Assembly: GCA_016215405.1 (NCBI GenBank)
Contig: JACRJQ010000007.1
Span: 71,297-135,296 of the forward strand
Length of the DNA stretch: 64,000 nucleotides
From: Candidatus Tayloriibacteriota bacterium
GTDB taxonomy: Bacteria > Patescibacteriota > Minisyncoccia > Phycocordibacterales > UBA6065
Reading direction: 5' to 3'
A model generated the notes under the pieces. That model saw only the letters and a list, made by a program, of their open reading frames with translations, was not told where the DNA came from and searched no databases. Positions within the stretch are counted from its first letter, which is position 1; the number at the start of each line of letters is the position of its first letter. Shown one piece after another: positions 30,834-41,980 of the stretch. The position numbers were made by a program, and so were the translations under genes.

Positions 30834-30919
30834 ATATTAAGCGCGCTTCTATGTCGCTAATAGTAGCAGGTATAAGGAGAGGTATCGAGGGCGGGGTTCG
30901 AACGCGAGCCTTCATTTGG

Positions 30920-31005
30920 CGGAGACGGAGAGAATTTCGGTCCTTACAGGACCAGTACCCCGATTGGCGCGAGTACGCGGCTCAATCGGGCTTCGAATCT
31001 CTCAC
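30920..31005. repeat. 86-bp direct repeat, copy 1 (duplicated tRNA-Ser mirror element)
   Basis: Identical to 31076-31161 by eye. Begins with ggagacggagaga, antisense of the tRNA-Ser 3' end; ends with ttcgaatctctcac, antisense of the T-loop/stem; two internal hairpins. Confidence 0.8.
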
Positions 31006-31075
31006 ACCCCTATCGATGATTCGGTCACAGGTTTTCGCTTGCTAGCGAAACCCGCGACCCCGCCTCGCGCCGTCG

Positions 31076-31161
31076 CGGAGACGGAGAGAATTTCGGTCCT
31101 TACAGGACCAGTACCCCGATTGGCGCGAGTACGCGGCTCAATCGGGCTTCGAATCTCTCAC
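31076..31161. repeat. 86-bp direct repeat, copy 2 (tRNA-Ser mirror element)
   Basis: Same 86 bp as copy 1, period 156. Followed by a gcaggcgtaccacgcctgc hairpin and a sense-strand ctcgtctccgcca. Confidence 0.8.
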
Positions 31162-31227: not shown

Positions 31228-31319
31228 TGGCGGAGACGGAGAGATTCGAACTCTCGAACCAGTTTTACCCGGTTAACACCTTAGCAAGGTGCCGCTTTCG
31301 ACCACTCAGCCACGTCTCC
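31228..31319 (-). tRNA. tRNA-Ser (anticodon GCT), CCA encoded
   Basis: Type II tRNA. Acceptor GGAGACG/CGTCTCC, anticodon loop TTGCTAA, long variable arm, T-arm CGAGAGTTCGAATCTCTC, G73 plus CCA. Confidence 0.85.
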
Positions 31320-31461
31320 CTCGTACTAGCTTTGGAGCAGAGAGACAATACCATATCGACGCTCGATTTTCTACGTTTTTCAGCGAAGATTGATAAAACA
31401 GAGAGCGAGTGATAGGGTTTGCGAGAATTCAGTCACAGCAACATCGAAACAGGAGGCTACC

Positions 31462-31947
31462 ATGGCTCAAGAGACCTATCAGACGGTCGAGTCGCTTTGG
31501 AACGAGGAGGGTCGCGGCATGAGAGCGGTGTGGAGCGCAGACCCAATGCATTTCCGGACGCTCACGAATCAGACAGCTACCGCGCACCTCCTCCTCTCTT
31601 CCACCAGGCAAAAGACTCGCGGGGTCCGCGCGATCATCTTCGACGAGAGCGAGGGCAAGAAGGTCGATTACAGGTTCGACGAGGATTCTCCTCTGGCCTG
31701 GACCGACAGGGAGCTCGCGACGGCGTTCGACCGGGTCCGAAACTCGAAGAACCTCGCCACTGACCCTGACTTCGCTCGCGAATGCGGCGCAGACGTCGCT
31801 ATCCGCGGCAAGTTCGCCCGCAAAGGCAGAGAGCTCGTCATCTTCTGCGAGGAAATGGAGGGAGACCCTCCCAAAAAGAGAGCGTTCTCGATCCTCGTCA
31901 CGGACGAAATCGCAGGGGCCGTGGGAATGCTCCTGCCGAAGCTCTAA
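31462..31947 (+). CDS. hypothetical protein, paralog A of a tandem pair
   Basis: Start reassigned to MAQETYQ with an AGGAGG SD; shares the GKFARKG...V.FC...G...V.DEI C-terminal block with the next gene. Confidence 0.55.
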   Translation: MAQETYQTVESLWNEEGRGMRAVWSADPMHFRTLTNQTATAHLLLSSTRQKTRGVRAIIFDESEGKKVDYRFDEDSPLAWTDRELATAFDRVRNSKNLATDPDFARECGADVAIRGKFARKGRELVIFCEEMEGDPPKKRAFSILVTDEIAGAVGMLLPKL

Positions 31948-32056: not shown

Positions 32057-32497
32057 ATGAACGAACAGACCGAAACGACGCCCATCGACTGGAAAGAAGG
32101 AGCGAGATACAAAGCGACCCTCGCAGAGGACGTGAACCACAAAGGGCTCACCGTCACGACCTTCGCGGCGCATCTTATGATCGAGCGCGCGGAGGACGGG
32201 TTTTCGACCCGCCTCGTCGCGTTCGGCGAGAAGAGCAAGAGGTCCGCGGACGGCCTACTCAACTTCTCGCGAGACGAGCTCCTCACGGCGCTCGGCCTGC
32301 CGCGCGAGGCAGATTCGACCGACCGGCGATTCGCCGAATCAGTCGAAGCGGAATTCGCCTTGCCCGGGAAATTCGCCCGCAAGGGAGGCGTCCTCGCCGT
32401 CTTCTGCAAAGCGGAAGACGGCACCGAGCGGCGCTACTACTTCGTCATCCCTGACGAGATTAAGCCCGCCCTTTCCCTCTATCTCAACCATCGCTGA
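32057..32497 (+). CDS. hypothetical protein, paralog B of a tandem pair
   Basis: 146 aa; GGAGGA SD; C-terminal LPGKFARKGGVLAVFCKAEDG...VIPDEI is homologous to paralog A. Confidence 0.55.
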   Translation: MNEQTETTPIDWKEGARYKATLAEDVNHKGLTVTTFAAHLMIERAEDGFSTRLVAFGEKSKRSADGLLNFSRDELLTALGLPREADSTDRRFAESVEAEFALPGKFARKGGVLAVFCKAEDGTERRYYFVIPDEIKPALSLYLNHR

Positions 32498-33430: not shown

Positions 33431-34006
33431 ATGAAAATCGTCCTCATAGCAATACTCTGCCTCGTCGTCGTCGGAGGAGTCGTCTATGCCCTGACATCGA
33501 CCCAAAGCTACGAAACCGACGGCGAAGGGATCGTCTGCACCATGGACGCAAAGCTCTGCCCTGACGGATCGTATGTCGGGCGGACAGGGCCTGATTGCCA
33601 GTTCGCGGCATGCCCCGACGGAAACGCGACTTCGACGGCGACCTCGACCGGCGCGACGACGAGAGCGGCCGGGGCGCGACAAGCAGACGCGGCGACGATC
33701 GAGCTTGCGCCCGCTTCGACCGTCTCGCTGCCAACATCGGCTTCGGTAGCGTACACCGGCCTCGGATTCTCGCCGCGCGAGGCAATGGTCGCTCTCGGCG
33801 GAAAGGTGACCTTCACCAACAAGTCGAGCTCCAACCTGTGGGTCGCCTCCGACCCGCATCCGACGCATAACGGCTATCCAGGCTTCGACCAAGGCCGATC
33901 CGTGCCGCCGGGCGGATCGTGGACCTTTACGTTCGAGCGCGAAGGATCGTGGACGTATCACAACCATATAATATCGACGCACAGAGGGACCGTCGTCGCG
34001 CGATAG
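33431..34006 (+). CDS. hypothetical secreted protein
   Basis: 191 aa; signal/TM anchor; C-terminal beta-rich domain (KVTFTNKSS...SWTFTFEREGSWTYHNH), possibly cupredoxin-like. Confidence 0.45.
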   Translation: MKIVLIAILCLVVVGGVVYALTSTQSYETDGEGIVCTMDAKLCPDGSYVGRTGPDCQFAACPDGNATSTATSTGATTRAAGARQADAATIELAPASTVSLPTSASVAYTGLGFSPREAMVALGGKVTFTNKSSSNLWVASDPHPTHNGYPGFDQGRSVPPGGSWTFTFEREGSWTYHNHIISTHRGTVVAR

Positions 34007-34075
34007 AGATATAAAGAGGAGTATAAAACGAAACAGCGCTCGAACGAGCGCTGTCTGAAAGTCGGGAGATGCCCG

Positions 34076-34366
34076 TCACGTCTTCGGAGAGGCCCACTGA
34101 AGGCGCTTCTCGATGACCATGAAGCAGACGAGGGCGAGCAATCCTCCTACGATGAGCGCCGACCAGAAGCCGAGGCCGAAGTAGGAGGCGATCGCCGAGA
34201 GACAGGACCAGCCGGAGAGGAACCCAAAGCCGAGGATATCCTCCTTGCCCTGGTCGTCGCCTCCCCTCAGAGAAGAGACAAGGAGGCAGAGTTTGATGAG
34301 GCAGGCGAAGAACGAAAGGCCGAAGAATACTAAGGCCTTGTGGGACATAAGCCATTCGATGAGCAT
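34076..34366 (-). CDS. small hypothetical membrane protein
   Basis: 96 aa, 3 TM; last gene of the flotillin operon on the minus strand. Confidence 0.35.
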   Translation of the reverse strand: MLIEWLMSHKALVFFGLSFFACLIKLCLLVSSLRGGDDQGKEDILGFGFLSGWSCLSAIASYFGLGFWSALIVGGLLALVCFMVIEKRLQWASPKT

Positions 34367-34539
34367 GGTGAGTGCGGTGGTTGCGGAGCCGGGAAGTCGG
34401 ACACCAGCGAGAACTATACCGACCCCTAAAAATTAGTCAAAGGCCCCTCTTCCCGCTCTCTATATATAAAAGAAAAGGCGCGGGGATCTTTCGATTCCCG
34501 CGCCTCGCAAATTTGACACTACTTACTTGTTGCTTTTCG

Positions 34540-36384
34540 TCAGCTGACCGTCGGAGTATCGGTCGCACCAGGCGCCGCAGGGGCGCCATTCGCCGACCGA
34601 GCAGCCGCAGCGATCGTCGTCGGATTGAGTCCGACGTTCATGCCGAGCATCTTCTGGAGACCCGAGCCATCCATCTTGAAGAAGGACAAGAGGGGCTTCA
34701 CATCGACGCCGCGAGCTTCGCACTGAGTGAAGAAGTTCGCGATCGCCGTCGGGATCGACGTGGCCAGAGTCTGGAGGGCATCCCCCGTCGTCTTGCCGCC
34801 GCCGAGATCCGTGATGTTGATCGTGCCGATCTTGCCAAGGCCGATGCCCATGGGTCCGAAGACCTCCTTGGCGATCGCCGCGCCCGCTTCGCCGCCTTTT
34901 TCGAGGAGGCCGGGCAAACGGTCGAGGATCAGGATGAGCTGACCGCGCTCGTCCATCTTTTGGAGCGCTTCGGCGAGCTTTTCAGTGCCGGTCGCTTCCG
35001 CCAGAAGGGCGTTCTGCTTGCCCTCCGCGATGGCGTTAAGCCGCAGGCGTTCGCCCTCGGCTGTCGCCACGAGCTTCGCCTTGTCGCCTTCCGCCGCCGC
35101 CAGGAGCTTCGCCTTGTCGCCTTCCGCCGTAGCGAGCGCGACAGCGCGATTGCCCTCGGCCTGAGCGCCGAGAGTGACCTTGGTCGCCTCAGCCTCGGCG
35201 TTCGCCTGGAGCTTGCGCTTTTCGGCTTCGCCTTGACCGGTGGTGACCGCTGCCTTCCGTTGGCCTTCGGCCTGGATGGCAGCGCGTTCGGCTTCGAACT
35301 GGGCAGCCTTCTGCCCGGCCTCAGCGCGAATGAGGATCGCCTTGCTTTCCGCTTCGGCGGCGACGATGACCGTCGCGTCGAGCTCCTTTTCCTTGCGCTT
35401 GCGCTCTTGCTCTTCCACGCCGACGCGCGCCTCGGCATCTGCCTTGTCGCGGTCTGCCTGGGCGATCTTGAGCTGCTTTTCCATGCTCGCCTTAGCGAGC
35501 TCGCCCGCCAGATTCGCTTCCGCGTTTTTGGCGTCGACGAGCCCCTTGTTCGCTGCGACTTGAAGCGCGAGCTGGCGCTGGGCTTCTGCGATCTTCGCGT
35601 CGTTCTGGGCCTTCGCCTCCGCGGCTTCGCGGGCGGCGTTGCTCGTCTTGACGCTCGTTTCCTTCTGCGCTTCCGCGACCCTGATCGCCGTCTCCTTCTC
35701 GGCTTCGGCGACCTGGATGTTGGCGTCGCGCATCGTGTTGGCGATCTCCTGCTTGCCGAGGGCCTCGATGTAGCCGTGCTCGTCCGAGACGTCCTGGATG
35801 ACCAGGGTGAGGATCTGCAGGCCGAGCTTGCGGAATTCTTCCGCCGACTCCTTGACGACCATCTCATTGAACGTCGCGCGCTCCCGAAGGAGCTCGTGGA
35901 CCTCCAATTTTCCGATGATCGACCGGATGTGGCCCTTGAGGATCTGCCCGACGAATTCATTGATCTCCTGCGGCGATTTGCCGAGGAAAGCCTGAACCGC
36001 GTTGTGCTGGTCCTCCGGGGCGTTCGAGATGCGGCACGTGGCCACGCCTTCGATCGAGACCCGGACGTTCTTGGCGCTCGGGATCTTCGCCTCCTTCACA
36101 TCCACCTGGAATGCCGCCATCGACATCTCCTGGTAGCGTTCGAAGAGGGGCCACAAGATCGAGCCGCCGCCCGTTACGGTGCGGAAACCGCGCTTGTGGA
36201 CCTTGTTGTCGGCGTCGATGTAGGAGTATTTCATCCCATAGAAGACGCCGATGACGTTCGGAGCGACGCGTTTGTAGCGCGACGAGACGACGTAGCCGAG
36301 GAACACGAACGCGAGGACGATTGCCACCGCGATGATCGGAGTCGTGAACGACCCCGCGCTGACTTCTGCGATAATAAGATTCAT
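34540..36384 (-). CDS. flotillin-like SPFH/band-7 protein (FloT/YqiK family)
   Basis: 614 aa; N-terminal TM, SPFH domain, long Ala/Glu-rich coiled-coil (EA repeats). Confidence 0.85.
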   Translation of the reverse strand: MNLIIAEVSAGSFTTPIIAVAIVLAFVFLGYVVSSRYKRVAPNVIGVFYGMKYSYIDADNKVHKRGFRTVTGGGSILWPLFERYQEMSMAAFQVDVKEAKIPSAKNVRVSIEGVATCRISNAPEDQHNAVQAFLGKSPQEINEFVGQILKGHIRSIIGKLEVHELLRERATFNEMVVKESAEEFRKLGLQILTLVIQDVSDEHGYIEALGKQEIANTMRDANIQVAEAEKETAIRVAEAQKETSVKTSNAAREAAEAKAQNDAKIAEAQRQLALQVAANKGLVDAKNAEANLAGELAKASMEKQLKIAQADRDKADAEARVGVEEQERKRKEKELDATVIVAAEAESKAILIRAEAGQKAAQFEAERAAIQAEGQRKAAVTTGQGEAEKRKLQANAEAEATKVTLGAQAEGNRAVALATAEGDKAKLLAAAEGDKAKLVATAEGERLRLNAIAEGKQNALLAEATGTEKLAEALQKMDERGQLILILDRLPGLLEKGGEAGAAIAKEVFGPMGIGLGKIGTINITDLGGGKTTGDALQTLATSIPTAIANFFTQCEARGVDVKPLLSFFKMDGSGLQKMLGMNVGLNPTTIAAAARSANGAPAAPGATDTPTVS

Positions 36385-36438
36385 GGTTCTGAACTGGATT
36401 TCTGAGTTTTTGGTTAGACTGAAGTGAACTGAACTTGA

Positions 36439-37047
36439 TTACACGGCTTCGACGACCAATTGGCCGCCTGCGTTTGATTTGACCTTGACCCTCCGGCCGA
36501 ACGAGATCGGTTGCCCGCTCTCCGTCCGAGCCGAGAAGGTCGAGTAGCTTCCTTGGACCGTGACGCCGACTTCCCCGATCCCGTCTTGGGGGATGCCGAC
36601 CGTGACCTGGCCGAGCTGCCCTACGGCATTGTTCGTATCGATGGCTGAGTTCGACTGCTGGCGATACATCGCCCGCAGCATGCTCCAGCCGACGAGTCCG
36701 AACACGACACCGGAGCAGAGGCCTCCGGACACGCTCGCCGCCGACGAAAAGCCGTTGTGGCTCATGATGGCGCCGATGCCGCCGAAACCGACGAGAAAGA
36801 TCGCGATGACCTTGAATGAGAAGATGCTCACCGTGGTATCGCCGTCATGTCCGTCGCCTGCAGAAGCGTCGTGCCCGCCGTCCCCATCATGTCCGAGGCC
36901 GCCGAAAAGGGCGGACACTGCGAGATAGATGAAGCCGAGGAGCCCGATGCTGATAAAGACCGTCGTCTGTCCGGTCTGCGTTATTGACTCCCAGAGATTT
37001 GAGAGCATGGTATTTGTCCTTGGTTGAGGTTTGACTGTCCTAAACAA
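36439..37047 (-). CDS. NfeD-like membrane protein (flotillin partner, YqiJ-like)
   Basis: TM helices plus a C-terminal OB-fold-like beta domain (GQVTVGIPQDGIGEVGVTVQGSYSTFSAR); immediately upstream of flotillin. Confidence 0.7.
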   Translation of the reverse strand: MFRTVKPQPRTNTMLSNLWESITQTGQTTVFISIGLLGFIYLAVSALFGGLGHDGDGGHDASAGDGHDGDTTVSIFSFKVIAIFLVGFGGIGAIMSHNGFSSAASVSGGLCSGVVFGLVGWSMLRAMYRQQSNSAIDTNNAVGQLGQVTVGIPQDGIGEVGVTVQGSYSTFSARTESGQPISFGRRVKVKSNAGGQLVVEAV

Positions 37048-37175
37048 GTAGTGGTGTCGATGAACACCTGGTTCCGAATACTACATATATTTGTGTATAA
37101 GTCAAGTTTATTGCCGAATAAACAAAAGCCCTCACCTACTTGGAGGGAGGGCCGCATTGAGCCATATACCAGACC

Positions 37176-38702
37176 TTAGGCTCGAACCGCCTTCTGAGCG
37201 GCGTCGTGGAGCTCCGAACCATCTTCCGCGAGAAGAGCAAGAAGTCGCAGCTCGCTATGAGTCGCGATCCGGACGGCCTTCTCGGCGACCCTTCTCTCTA
37301 GATCGTCCGGGCAATCCATATCCTCGTTATCCTCGTCACGGATGACAAGGGAGAGCTCGACTAGTTCGAATACGGACACAGAAAGGCAGAAGGCAGACTC
37401 GAAGGCGTGCAGGCTGAGAGCCTGGGGACAGGAGCCGTCCTTCAGGCACTCGATCACCTTCCCCCGAGACAAGCCGAGGCGATTAAACGCCGCCGCAGCC
37501 GCCTTGATCCGTTCATCGTCATCGTTCAACAGCTCGCAAAGATCGAAGACGTCGTCGAGACCGCGAGAGGCTGCCGCAACCTTGGCGAAGGCGAGTTCCG
37601 CGAGCTCCTCTGTAGCCTCGTCGTCCTCGCAAACGGATTTCCACGAATCACGGCTCTCCCCCTCGCGGCCCTGGAGGGCCTCGAAGACGAGCTTCTCCGC
37701 CTTCGAGGAGCCGGCCGCGGCTTTGTGGAGTTCGACGAGGTCGTCGAGGTCTCCCGCTGCTGCGATTGCTTTAGTGGCTATGGTGAGCTCGAACGGGCTA
37801 TCTTCGTCAGCCCTCTCGAAAAGCTCTTTCCATTCCGAAAAGGAGGCGTCGATCTTGGATATCTCGACGGTCGCCTTGTCGAGCACTTCGAACATCTCGC
37901 GGCTCTCGGCATAATCGCAGACATCTGTCCACTGAGAGAACGTGCCCGCCGTGACGGCCATCTTCTCGAGAGCGAGGCTCGCCAGAGCTTCCGACACATC
38001 CTCGTCATAGGTCCGTTTCCAGTCTTCGAAATCCGCCTCGAACGCTTTGATCGCGCTTAAGACAGACGTTTCGGACTCGTCGCCGTCCGGGATTTCCCGA
38101 TAAACCCTGACGAGCTCGTCGAGGCTCTTCGCGCTCTCGATCGCCTTCTTAAGGGCGACGAGCTTGAAGGCTTCTCCCGCGCCCTCCTTCGAATAGAGGG
38201 AGAGCCACTGGTCGAAGGCAACGGACAGCCTTATAAGCTCCGCTTCCGCCTTGGCAGCGATACCGGAAGCCGGCTCGCTTTCGGACGAGCGGGAAAGGAC
38301 CGTGGCCCACTCCTCGAACGTCTTCGCCGTTTCGGACATCTTCGCCGTCGCGTGCGATTTAAGCGACGCGTCGGCGGCGTCGAGGCAAAGGACGCGCGAC
38401 CAGTCGCTGAACGACTTAGCCGTTTCCTTTATCTTCTCGAGAGCCTTTTGGCCGAGCCTGCTGTCCTGAGAGACCTCGTTATGGACCGTGATCCAGTCGT
38501 CGAGGCTCCTCGCCAGCTTGGAGATCTTGTCGATCGTCTTCCCTTCGAGGACGCTCCCTGTCTCGGTATTGACATAGATGCGGATGCACTGACGAAGGGT
38601 CTCCGCTCCGGCCAACACGTCGACCTGCTGAACTTTTTTCGAGGGCTCGATGTAATCTTCGCCCGAGATGACACATTTGATCCGATGAAGCCATTTGAAC
38701 AT
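37176..38702 (-). CDS. acidic tandem-repeat protein of unknown function (about 10 repeats of roughly 35 aa with an F..W core)
   Basis: Recurrent KAxxTAKSFSDWSRV / AKTFEEWATV / VAFDQWLSLY / AFEADFEDWKRTY / AGTFSQWTDV / DASFSEWKELF units; no TM, D/E-rich. Confidence 0.55.
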   Translation of the reverse strand: MFKWLHRIKCVISGEDYIEPSKKVQQVDVLAGAETLRQCIRIYVNTETGSVLEGKTIDKISKLARSLDDWITVHNEVSQDSRLGQKALEKIKETAKSFSDWSRVLCLDAADASLKSHATAKMSETAKTFEEWATVLSRSSESEPASGIAAKAEAELIRLSVAFDQWLSLYSKEGAGEAFKLVALKKAIESAKSLDELVRVYREIPDGDESETSVLSAIKAFEADFEDWKRTYDEDVSEALASLALEKMAVTAGTFSQWTDVCDYAESREMFEVLDKATVEISKIDASFSEWKELFERADEDSPFELTIATKAIAAAGDLDDLVELHKAAAGSSKAEKLVFEALQGREGESRDSWKSVCEDDEATEELAELAFAKVAAASRGLDDVFDLCELLNDDDERIKAAAAAFNRLGLSRGKVIECLKDGSCPQALSLHAFESAFCLSVSVFELVELSLVIRDEDNEDMDCPDDLERRVAEKAVRIATHSELRLLALLAEDGSELHDAAQKAVRA

Positions 38703-38817
38703 GATCTTGTCCCCTGGTTGGTTGTTGCTGATTCAAAGAAATTCTTTCTCACATAATCTTAAACTTGTCTTTTTGTCAATGATATAAACGATAAGGCTGC
38801 TATAGAATAAAGACTGT

Positions 38818-40983
38818 ATGGACCTAATCTCTCCCATCGAAAGCCACTTCCGTCTCTTGGGACCCCAGAAGAGCGCCCTAAGGAAGCTCGGCATATCGAC
38901 CGTCGAGGACCTTCTCTACCACTTCCCCGTCCGATACGGCGACACTGCGGAATCGCGCAACATCGCGAGCCTCAGGAAAGGCGATGAGGCCGTCGTATAC
39001 GGCAAGATCTCGAGGCTCAAGACGTCGAAAGGGTTCCGCACCAAGATCGCGATGGCGGACGGGGTCGTCGTCGACGATACCGGCTCCATAAAGTGCGTCT
39101 GGTTCAACCAGCCCTACCTCGCGAAGATGATCCCCGACGAGGCGCTGGTCCGCGTCGAGGGGAAGGTCTCGGAGAGGAAGAAAGACGGCGAGCTCTACCT
39201 CTCGAATCCGAAGATCGAGAGGGTCGACAAGCTCCCGACCGCCGTAGGCGACTCTCTCTTCGGCTCGGACGGAGGGATTCACACGCTCTATCCCGTCTAC
39301 CCGGAATCGCGCGGAATAACGTCTAACTGGTTCTATCACGCGATACAAAAGGCGTTCAAAAGCGGCATCCTCGACGCGCTCGAAGACCCTCTGCCTCCTG
39401 AGATACTAGAAAGATACAGTCTCCCTACGCTGCGCACAGCGCTCGTCTGGATGCACGCGCCCCAAAAGGACGCGGACGCCCACGCCGCCCGAAAGCGGTT
39501 CGCCTTCGAAGAGGTGTTCTTCATACAGCTCGAACGGCAGAGGGAGAGGAGGGAGTGGAAAAAGAACCCCGCGTTCGTTATAGAGCCGAAGCCTGAAGTC
39601 ATAGAGCGCTTCGTCTCGCGCTTTCCCTTCCCTCTCACCTCGGCCCAGTCAAAGGCCATATCCGACGTGCTCGACGATTTCAAGAAAGGCAACGCTATGG
39701 CGCGCCTCCTCGAAGGCGACGTGGGCTCCGGCAAAACCGCCGTAGCGGCGGCGACCGCGCACGCCGCTATCATGACCCGGCCCCGCGGCCAGGATTACGG
39801 GTCGCTCCAGGTCGCCTATATGGCGCCGACCGAGATCCTCGCGGCCCAACACTTCGAGTCTTTCATCCAGTACTTCGAGCACACGGGGATATCGATCGGC
39901 CTCATCACCGGCTCCGGCTGCAGGAAATTCCCATCCAAAGTAAACCCTAGAGGGTGGACCGACATATCGAGGACGCAGCTCCTTAAATGGGTGGGTAACG
40001 GAGAGATCCCTATACTCATAGGCACCCATGCCCTCATCCAAAAGTCGGTGAAGTTCAAGAACCTCGCCTACGCCATCGTCGACGAGCAGCACCGCTTCGG
40101 CACGGCCCAGAGGCAAAAGCTCGTCCGCAAAGACGAAATCCACCCCCACCTCCTCTCCATGACCGCGACGCCTATACCGCGCACGCTCGCCCTCACTATT
40201 TACGGCGACCTCGACATCACGCTCCTCGACCAAATGCCCCACGGGCGAAAGCCCATCGTCACCGAGATCGTGCTTAAAACCAAGCGCGACGAGATGTACG
40301 AGAAGGTCCGACGCGAATTGAGGCTCGGACGGCAGGCCTACGTCATATGCCCCCGCATAGACGAGCCGGATCCAGCCAAAGAGATGGCCGTATTGGCGAA
40401 ATCCGTCAAAGAAGAGGCCAAAAGGCTCCAGGATTCGGTCTTCAAGGAGTACGAGATAGGCATCCTGCACTCCAAGATGAAGGACGCGGAAAAAGAAAGG
40501 GTGATGGCGGAATTTAAAAAGGGCTCGATCCACATCCTTGTCGCCACTTCGGTCGTCGAGGTGGGCGTGAACGTCCCCAACGCGACGGTCATCCTCATCG
40601 AGGGCGCCGAGAGGTTCGGGCTTTCTCAGCTTCACCAGCTGCGCGGCCGCGTCGTGCGCTCGAACCATCAGGCATACTGCTTCGTCTACGCCGAGACCCA
40701 GAGCCAAAAGACTATCGACCGTCTCAAAGCCCTCACCACCGCGAAGAACGGCTTCGAGCTCGCCGAATTCGACCTGAAATTCCGCGGCGCCGGAGAGCTC
40801 TACGGCAAAAGGCAGTGGGGCATCTCGGACGTGGGCATGGAGGCGATAAAGAACATAAAGATGGTCGAGGCAGCGAGGACGGAGGCCGTACGCATCGTAG
40901 AGTCAGACGGCTCGCTCGCGAACCTGCCTCTCCTGCGCGCGAAGCTCGACGAGCGCAAGAGCCAGAGGATACACTTCGAATAG
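38818..40983 (+). CDS. recG: ATP-dependent DNA helicase RecG
   Basis: 721 aa; wedge domain, Walker A GDVGSGKT, DEQH box, helicase C motifs. Confidence 0.9.
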   Translation: MDLISPIESHFRLLGPQKSALRKLGISTVEDLLYHFPVRYGDTAESRNIASLRKGDEAVVYGKISRLKTSKGFRTKIAMADGVVVDDTGSIKCVWFNQPYLAKMIPDEALVRVEGKVSERKKDGELYLSNPKIERVDKLPTAVGDSLFGSDGGIHTLYPVYPESRGITSNWFYHAIQKAFKSGILDALEDPLPPEILERYSLPTLRTALVWMHAPQKDADAHAARKRFAFEEVFFIQLERQRERREWKKNPAFVIEPKPEVIERFVSRFPFPLTSAQSKAISDVLDDFKKGNAMARLLEGDVGSGKTAVAAATAHAAIMTRPRGQDYGSLQVAYMAPTEILAAQHFESFIQYFEHTGISIGLITGSGCRKFPSKVNPRGWTDISRTQLLKWVGNGEIPILIGTHALIQKSVKFKNLAYAIVDEQHRFGTAQRQKLVRKDEIHPHLLSMTATPIPRTLALTIYGDLDITLLDQMPHGRKPIVTEIVLKTKRDEMYEKVRRELRLGRQAYVICPRIDEPDPAKEMAVLAKSVKEEAKRLQDSVFKEYEIGILHSKMKDAEKERVMAEFKKGSIHILVATSVVEVGVNVPNATVILIEGAERFGLSQLHQLRGRVVRSNHQAYCFVYAETQSQKTIDRLKALTTAKNGFELAEFDLKFRGAGELYGKRQWGISDVGMEAIKNIKMVEAARTEAVRIVESDGSLANLPLLRAKLDERKSQRIHFE

Positions 40984-41898: not shown

Positions 41899-41972
41899 GC
41901 GCCTATAGCTCAGTTGGTTAGAGCATCGAGCTTATACCTCGAGGGTCCTTGGTTCGAGTCCAAGTAGGCGCA
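41899..41972 (+). tRNA. tRNA-Ile (anticodon TAT)
   Basis: Acceptor GCGCCTA/TAGGCGC, anticodon stem TCGAG/CTCGA with loop CTTATAC, T-arm CTTGGTTCGAGTCCAAG. Confidence 0.8.
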
Positions 41973-41980
41973 CCGACATA

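Follow-up and report, generated by a model that had tools for sequence, protein, structure and literature searches.

The described rule for prokaryotic flotillins is that a gene for an NfeD protein stands upstream of the flotillin gene, and NfeD-SPFH2 operons are the known core of these systems (PMC2636767). In Bacillus subtilis (yuaF-floT/yuaG) and Escherichia coli (yqiJ-yqiK), a small NfeD/OB membrane protein is encoded directly upstream of a flotillin of about 600 amino acids (aa), and an NfeD-like gene takes that place in the locus studied here, which lies in a 64,000-nucleotide (nt) stretch of DNA (hereafter the window) from a Candidatus Tayloriibacteriota bacterium (assembly GCA_016215405.1, contig JACRJQ010000007.1, positions 71,297 to 135,296). 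In the window, the NfeD-like and flotillin genes are preceded by a gene for a 508-aa acidic tandem-repeat protein, which is the subject of this study. To our knowledge, NfeD is the only conserved genetic partner of bacterial flotillin known so far, and how flotillins select and organize their partners is still unclear; a conserved, soluble, scaffold-type neighbor would give a concrete candidate for a flotillin adaptor.

We put it at nearly an even chance that the repeat protein is a lineage-specific cytoplasmic solenoid scaffold or adaptor that works with the flotillin/NfeD assembly, because the neighborhood survives changes in gene order and in flanking genes among related bacteria of the candidate phyla radiation (CPR). 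The protein is a plausible, if unproven, cytoplasmic partner of bacterial flotillin. What the data establish are the repeat, its fold class, its family, the separate transcription signals, and the recurrent neighborhood, whereas contact with flotillin or NfeD, a docking surface, the part played by the N-terminal helix, and any clients are inferred. The NfeD-flotillin core is already known, but as far as our searches reach, neither the family of 31-aa repeats nor its repeated occurrence next to flotillin genes has been described.

All four genes of the locus lie on the minus strand. The coding sequence (CDS) of the 508-aa protein (37176-38702), taken from the list of open reading frames (ORFs), is 100% identical to NCBI HZA81_02860, encoded on a 214-kb contig of a Candidatus Taylorbacteria metagenome-assembled genome (MAG). 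It is followed by an NfeD2/YuaF-like membrane protein (36439-37008; 189 aa from its ATG, the ORF being open from a TTG at 37047, which would give 202 aa), a flotillin recognized by its Band_7 and FloT profile matches (SPFH2, FloT-like; 34540-36384; 614 aa), and a 96-aa protein with two transmembrane (TM) segments identified from the ORF list and its hydrophobicity (34076-34366). An earlier note on this DNA had given the same order and coordinates, which are exact in the ORF list.

Conservation of the neighborhood

Genomic context was read for 13 members of the repeat-protein family, all drawn from different 50%-identity clusters. In nine of these, no more than one gene separates the repeat gene from a flotillin gene, three gene orders being represented, and the conserved linkage that had been proposed as a check on a flotillin association was therefore found. 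The order repeat, NfeD, flotillin occurs in the window, in P0004 (locus L010, where the NfeD-like protein is 60% identical to that of the window and the contig ends), in P0017 (L009; NfeD 42% and flotillin 53% identical), in P0007 (L002-4), in P0028 (L005-6), in P0155, and in P0144 (L013). In P0008 (L014) the order is NfeD, flotillin, a gene for a 98-aa protein, and repeat, and in P0023 the flotillin gene is followed by the repeat gene, with no NfeD gene called. Each locus holds one family member, and in L002 and L013 the repeat, NfeD, and flotillin genes are the only ones in common with the 64-kb window.

Several observations weigh against a working relationship between the repeat protein and flotillin. 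Four of the 13 members (P0152 in L007, P0005 in L008, P0006 in L011, and P0002 in L012) are unlinked to flotillin, and two of these loci are syntenic with the window and are missing only the NfeD-flotillin cassette, namely L011 (recG, the repeat gene, further genes, and a cupredoxin-like gene) and L008, in which the repeat gene lies beside the type II secretion system E/F genes that are 12 kb away in the window. In L002-L004 the flotillin is an N-terminal remnant of ~113-135 aa beside an intact repeat gene and NfeD (four contigs). A gene for RecG, 68-73% identical, is a direct or near neighbor in L009, L011, L014, and the P0155 contig, and its presence in the same neighborhood of related genomes means that synteny inherited within a single clade accounts for part of the linkage. 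An NfeD-flotillin pair from a member of the Verrucomicrobiae (34% and 48% identical, respectively) has no repeat gene nearby. Lastly, a terminator and a promoter split the repeat gene from the NfeD-flotillin genes in every locus for which DNA was available.

Much of this would also follow if the repeat gene, recG, and the cassette were ancestral neighbors with no functional coupling and the repeat protein had some unrelated role as a general scaffold in the cytoplasm, an explanation that we consider rather unlikely but that is the main rival to a flotillin partnership. It draws on the occurrence of recG, a gene without a plausible link to flotillin, in the same neighborhood in five loci, on the persistence of the repeat gene without the cassette (L008, L011) and with a decayed flotillin (L002-4), on the separateness of the transcription units, and on the unlinked state of distant family members such as P0002. 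However, the adjacency of the repeat and flotillin genes outlasts that with recG, being kept in L002, L005, L010, L013, and P0023, none of which has recG as a direct neighbor, and it survives two different reorderings (L014 and P0023), even though the linked repeat proteins now share only 23-30% identity with the window protein, a level of divergence at which gene order that is not under selection is normally lost. The proposal of an undescribed accessory to flotillin, as made in the earlier note, is thus a live hypothesis that has gained support from linkage and lost some to the unlinked members, the decayed flotillin, and the recG synteny.

The repeat family and its predicted fold

The 508-aa protein is soluble and strongly acidic, with an isoelectric point of 4.6 and a net charge of -41. 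Its tandem repeat is statistically real and has a period of 31 aa: autocorrelation with BLOSUM62 peaks at lags of 31, 62, and 96 (z = 5.8, 4.9, and 5.4), compared to a maximum z of 4.2 in a null set of 500 shuffles by 120 lags. Eleven units are in register, with anchors at residues 67, 98, 129, 163, 194, 225, 255, 288, 319, 353, and 382; together they occupy residues 47-394 (37521-38564, minus strand), and each carries an [FL]x[DEQ][WLV] core that starts the second helix of the unit. When hidden Markov models (HMMs) were built leaving out one unit at a time, 7 of the 11 units outscored all 2000 composition-matched decoys, the remaining 4 being beaten by 1-12 decoys.

Curated libraries gave no family for the protein, with no match in Pfam, NCBIfam, PHROGs, or the sequences of the Protein Data Bank (PDB), and ten of its relatives likewise matched no Pfam family. 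When the window protein or a 35-sequence profile served as the query, word-indexed homology searches retrieved nothing beyond the repeat protein itself, and two metagenome scans with sub-family alignments returned no relatives. Scanning 1.84 billion representatives exhaustively with HMMER recovered 195 relatives at E ≤ 1e-3, of which 61 were at E ≤ 1e-10; these relatives are 50%-identity representatives and are uncharacterized. They would define a new and easily recognized 31-aa repeat family of about 200 divergent representatives that carry no annotation. Its unit has the consensus GSELEKLALEKMAELAKTFDEWLEVYE, also written LALEKMAELAKTF[DE]EW..VY or L..LA.eKM.elAkTF[DE][DE]W..VY, with a modal spacing of 31. 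The unit HMM matches 135 of the 156 family proteins retrieved, and the key columns (conserved A15, F18, and W21) are occupied across the family by W in 84% of units, by the central A in 75%, and by F in 71%.

In the alignments, an orthologue-like subset of 330-510 aa has an N-terminal basic/hydrophobic helix, a first repeat that contains Cys39, and a C-terminal motif, AT.SE..(I/L)(I/L)ALLAE.. (AT.SE..IIALLAE), which marks the orthologous group and is present in the window protein. Two deposited starts within the family appear to be misplaced. That of P0004 (L010 1024-1122) looks 33 codons too long, as the promoter falls within the called N-terminus, and that of P0005 (L008 722-820) looks 33 codons too short, with an upstream in-frame MAIAYWLHKF... 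restoring the N-terminal helix.

The AlphaFold model made with the 35-sequence alignment had a predicted local distance difference test score (pLDDT) of 91.6 and a predicted template modeling score of 0.71, whereas the model made without an alignment was poor (pLDDT 59.7). The former is an alpha-solenoid of 15 helix pairs and a C-terminal capping helix covering residues 20-507 (37182-38645, minus strand), in which the pairs span residues 20-491; ahead of it lie a helix at residues 2-12, modeled at lower confidence, and a disordered linker at residues 13-19 (pLDDT < 50 for residues 15-18). The only fold neighbors of the model were TPR/HAT-like and designed solenoids. At the level of sequence, the window protein matched no TPR, HAT, HEAT, Sel1, or PPR profile of Pfam at E ≤ 1 and no PDB sequence at E ≤ 10, and ten relatives gave no such profile match at E ≤ 0.1. 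Like TPR/HAT-type solenoids, the modeled protein stacks an antiparallel two-helix repeat into a solenoid, but its period is 31 aa and not the 34 aa of TPR/HAT (PPR repeats have 35 aa and Sel1 repeats 36-44), so that the scaffold-type fold is alike while membership is not established. The sole hydrophobic 19-mer of the protein (residues 436-455) was considered as a TM segment and rejected, as it belongs to a buried helix pair in the folded core of the model (pLDDT ~94).

Set beside these results, the description in the earlier note stands in part. The repeats are there, and their signal, which could have vanished under statistical detection, persists in the autocorrelation, the leave-one-out HMMs, and the family-wide unit HMM. 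The period of roughly 35 aa is replaced by 31 aa, and the count of about ten becomes 11 by sequence and 15 by structural pairs. The statement that the protein has no TM segments holds, and the statement that it belongs to no recognizable family applies to the curated libraries and gives way before the 195 uncharacterized relatives.

As modeled, the architecture is that of a protein-protein interaction scaffold. An adaptor of this kind would most likely bind either the flotillin oligomer, from its cytoplasmic side, or the C-terminal domain of the NfeD-like protein and, once docked, would tether other proteins to the assembly. The converse arrangement, in which the flotillin/NfeD assembly holds the repeat protein as its own client or cargo, such as a sequestered or stabilized substrate, has the same neighborhood evidence behind it, and nothing separates the two models; flotillin microdomains are reported to confine and stabilize proteins (PMC11222466). 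An extended, rigid solenoid with 15 repeats would nevertheless be more typical of scaffolds than of clients, and we regard the client model as improbable.

For an adaptor, a candidate attachment point is the N-terminal basic/hydrophobic helix (residues 2-12, MFKWLHRIKCVI; 38667-38699, minus strand; model pLDDT ~65), which has similar counterparts at the N-termini of orthologues and is possibly a membrane-binding or partner-docking peptide. The conservation of this helix on its flexible linker in both linked and unlinked members would also fit a co-regulated membrane or envelope stress protein that is held at the membrane by an amphipathic N-terminus and acts alongside flotillin without binding it. 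In model bacteria, stress induces the flotillin operons, and the yuaFGI operon of B. subtilis depends on sigma-W. We nonetheless find this explanation unlikely: the hydrophobic moment of the helix is an unremarkable 0.57 (the 95th percentile for the protein is 0.68), the net charge of the protein would oppose binding to anionic membranes, and the leader box of the NfeD-flotillin genes described below, which has its single window match at 37054-37064, is absent upstream of the repeat gene.

Flotillin and NfeD-like proteins

The 614-aa protein matches Pfam PF01145 Band_7 (E 1.1e-23; 84.7 bits against a cut-off of 23.6) and NCBIfam FloT NF058507 (E 4.2e-59), although in the latter case its 200.8 bits fall below the equivalog cut-off of 700; judged by these profiles, it is a member of the flotillin family and not a FloT equivalog. 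An N-terminal hydrophobic anchor (residues 3-37) is followed by the SPFH domain and an Ala/Glu-rich coiled-coil region at residues ~220-480, which is kept in five orthologues. The identification of this gene as a flotillin/SPFH gene with a long EA-rich coiled coil is borne out by both profile matches and by that region. Identity to the flotillins of L001, L009, L013, and L014 is 46-54%. We also considered the flotillin tail as a CPR-specific docking site and rejected it, since conservation of the C-terminal region is just as high in the flotillin from the Verrucomicrobiae, a protein with no repeat partner. The flotillin remnant in the genome of P0007 (GCA_002413065.1) is frameshifted (L002 12260-12663, and also in L003 and L004).

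For the NfeD-like ORF, the profile matches are below cut-off both for Pfam PF01957 NfeD (E 0.01; 16.5 bits against 29.1) and for Pfam DUF1206 (E 1.1e-5). The protein has TM-like segments and a C-terminal domain resembling NfeD/OB by a weak profile match, and it is 34-60% identical to the products of the pre-flotillin genes in L001, L002, L005, L009, L010, L013, and L014. Despite the weak profile, the assignment as an NfeD-like gene is upheld by similarity and by the position upstream of flotillin in seven other loci. The NfeD-flotillin pair recurs in L001, L005, L009, L013, L014, and the P0155 contig, and in L002 with the flotillin remnant. On the sequence evidence, the two genes form a canonical NfeD2-SPFH2 operon and are apparently co-transcribed; the 54-nt gap between them contains no promoter-like or terminator-like signals.

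The NfeD-like protein carries, between hydrophobic segments one and two, a loop rich in His, Asp, and Gly at residues 40-57 (HDGDGGHDASAGDGHDGD; 36838-36891, minus strand), an H/D-rich equivalent of which is present in all NfeD-like orthologues, including the one from the Verrucomicrobiae. Its composition suggests metal binding, and we know of no description of such a loop in YuaF-type NfeD proteins.

A scan of genome contigs with the flotillin as query recovered one locus, in the Verrucomicrobiae MAG (OY760937.1), which was the sole relative recovered outside the CPR. There the pair (L001 9324-11830) is flanked by a gene for MatE and one for a sigma factor and has a similar leader motif. This relative, together with the absence of the cassette from two syntenic CPR loci, suggests that the NfeD-flotillin cassette moves horizontally.

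Transcription signals

The repeat gene is predicted to be a separate transcription unit because a terminator-like hairpin and a promoter-like site lie between it and the NfeD-like gene. Its own promoter-like site, TTGACA-17-TTATGT (38751-38779, minus strand), was read directly in the divergent intergenic region common with recG and is also found upstream of the closest orthologue (L010); the -10 element is weak, and a consensus promoter scanner missed the site. The predicted fold of an intrinsic-terminator-like hairpin, GGCCCUCCCU...AGGUGAGGGC followed by UUUUGUUUAUU, begins 23 nt past the stop of the repeat gene (37117-37153, minus strand). Next comes a sigma-70-type promoter-like site for the NfeD-flotillin genes, TTGACT-16-TAGTAT (37078-37105, minus strand; promoter scan), with a leader of ~70 nt before the NfeD ATG. 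That ATG, at 37008, is the most likely start, with AAGGA 8 nt 5' of it, and the gap between the repeat and NfeD-like genes is accordingly 167 nt.

The same succession of a hairpin with a T-run, a TTGAC[AT]-16/17-(TG)TAnnnT site, and a leader stands between the repeat and NfeD-like genes of the window, L002, L005, L009, L010, and L013, and the promoter-like site of the NfeD-flotillin operon is conserved in all related loci. Downstream, a terminator-like hairpin (GGCGCGGG...CCCCGCGCC and TTTTCTTTTAT; 34466-34504, minus strand) was read directly past the flotillin stop. The gene for the 96-aa membrane protein then forms a unit of its own (34031-34440, minus strand), with a promoter-like site at 34413-34440 and a terminator at 34031-34056, and no homologue of this protein was found in any related locus; for both reasons it was rejected as a member of the module.

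The earlier note had described an operon coupled to the repeat protein, with a 130-nt gap ahead of NfeD and the small membrane protein as its last member. Coupling at the level of an operon is wrong, given the terminator and promoter that intervene in the window and in five other loci; the gap is longer once ATG 37008 is taken as the start; and the small membrane protein belongs to a separate unit. Nearly every gene in the related loci carries its own signals (e.g., L014), and separate transcription thus weighs less against a functional linkage of the repeat protein to flotillin than it otherwise would. Since promoters and terminators come gene by gene in the CPR genomes of these loci, whether genes stay neighbors and whether they are transcribed together have to be judged separately there.

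Alignment of the leaders revealed a box, TTCATCGACAC, in the 5' untranslated region of the NfeD-flotillin genes (37054-37064, minus strand), which sits inside a small GGTGT/ACACC inverted repeat. Its consensus, TYCWTYGAMAY, has one match in the 64-kb window, and across 14 loci its matches are confined to NfeD leaders (L002 11331-11341, L009 3339-3349, L010 2354-2364, L013 6190-6200, and L014 3947-3957), often enclosed in a short inverted repeat, GTGTC/GACAC. Near-variants of the box, followed by TTTGGAAC, occur in L005 and in the Verrucomicrobiae locus L001. The box may act as an operator or, at the RNA level, as an element or hairpin. Two further candidates were discarded: a leader motif common to the repeat gene and the NfeD-flotillin operon, as the box occurs only in NfeD leaders, and a second promoter at the TTGACAC box, for which inspection found no consistent -10 downstream. 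An Rfam scan of 33900-38900 gave nothing meaningful, its sole hit (E 0.83) lying inside the flotillin CDS.

Other features of the window

Outside the locus, two identical 87-nt direct repeats (30919-31005 and 31075-31161, plus strand) are spaced at 156 nt, and a tRNA-Ser(GCT) gene (31228-31319, minus strand) fills a third slot of the same spacing. The first ~16-20 nt of the repeats are common to the 3' end of the tRNA-Ser gene, and no Rfam family matches the repeats, which may be remnants derived from a tRNA or, alternatively, att-like duplications. Beside this region are two adjacent paralogous ORFs (31390-31947 and 32057-32497, plus strand; 185 and 146 aa) with a common C-terminal motif, GKFARKG..L.(I/V)FC.... 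ARAGORN also identified a tRNA-Ile with anticodon TAT (41899-41974, plus strand), which is uncommon in bacteria, where AUA is usually read by a lysidine-modified CAT tRNA.

Comparison with known systems

A more specific proposal, which we offer tentatively and hold to be somewhat doubtful as it stands, is that the CPR clade has a three-component flotillin system in which a dedicated 31-aa-repeat solenoid binds the cytoplasmic face of flotillin/NfeD, perhaps by way of its N-terminal peptide or an acidic groove, and couples clients to it. If this were true, a cytoplasmic adaptor of a bacterial flotillin would have been defined for the first time, and the repeat protein, as that adaptor, would also found a new repeat family.

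A literature search found no report of a repeat-protein neighbor of flotillin, and among the papers searched the single one to name both flotillin and Patescibacteria deals with another subject. For yuaFG and yqiJK, no soluble acidic solenoid partner has been described, whereas the window locus has a conserved third gene, and its NfeD-like protein further differs from those systems in carrying the conserved His/Asp-rich loop. B. subtilis does have a third gene, yuaI, which is specific to that species and reported to be unrelated to NfeD (PMC2636767); unlike the 508-aa neighbor described here, YuaI is not a repeat protein. The FArhodopsin loci of streamlined marine bacteria offer a precedent for a lineage-specific flotillin-associated gene in small genomes, although the partner there is a membrane rhodopsin and not a cytoplasmic repeat protein, and the organisms are unrelated (PMC10308929). 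The PspA-YdjG/H-YdjI system has no sequence or fold relationship to the repeat protein, PspA being an ESCRT-III-like coiled coil and not a solenoid, and YdjI not a classical flotillin. It is nonetheless the closest functional analogy, as the B. subtilis SPFH protein YdjI recruits PspA to the membrane (PMC8581546), providing a case in which a soluble, all-helical partner of an SPFH protein is encoded alongside it.

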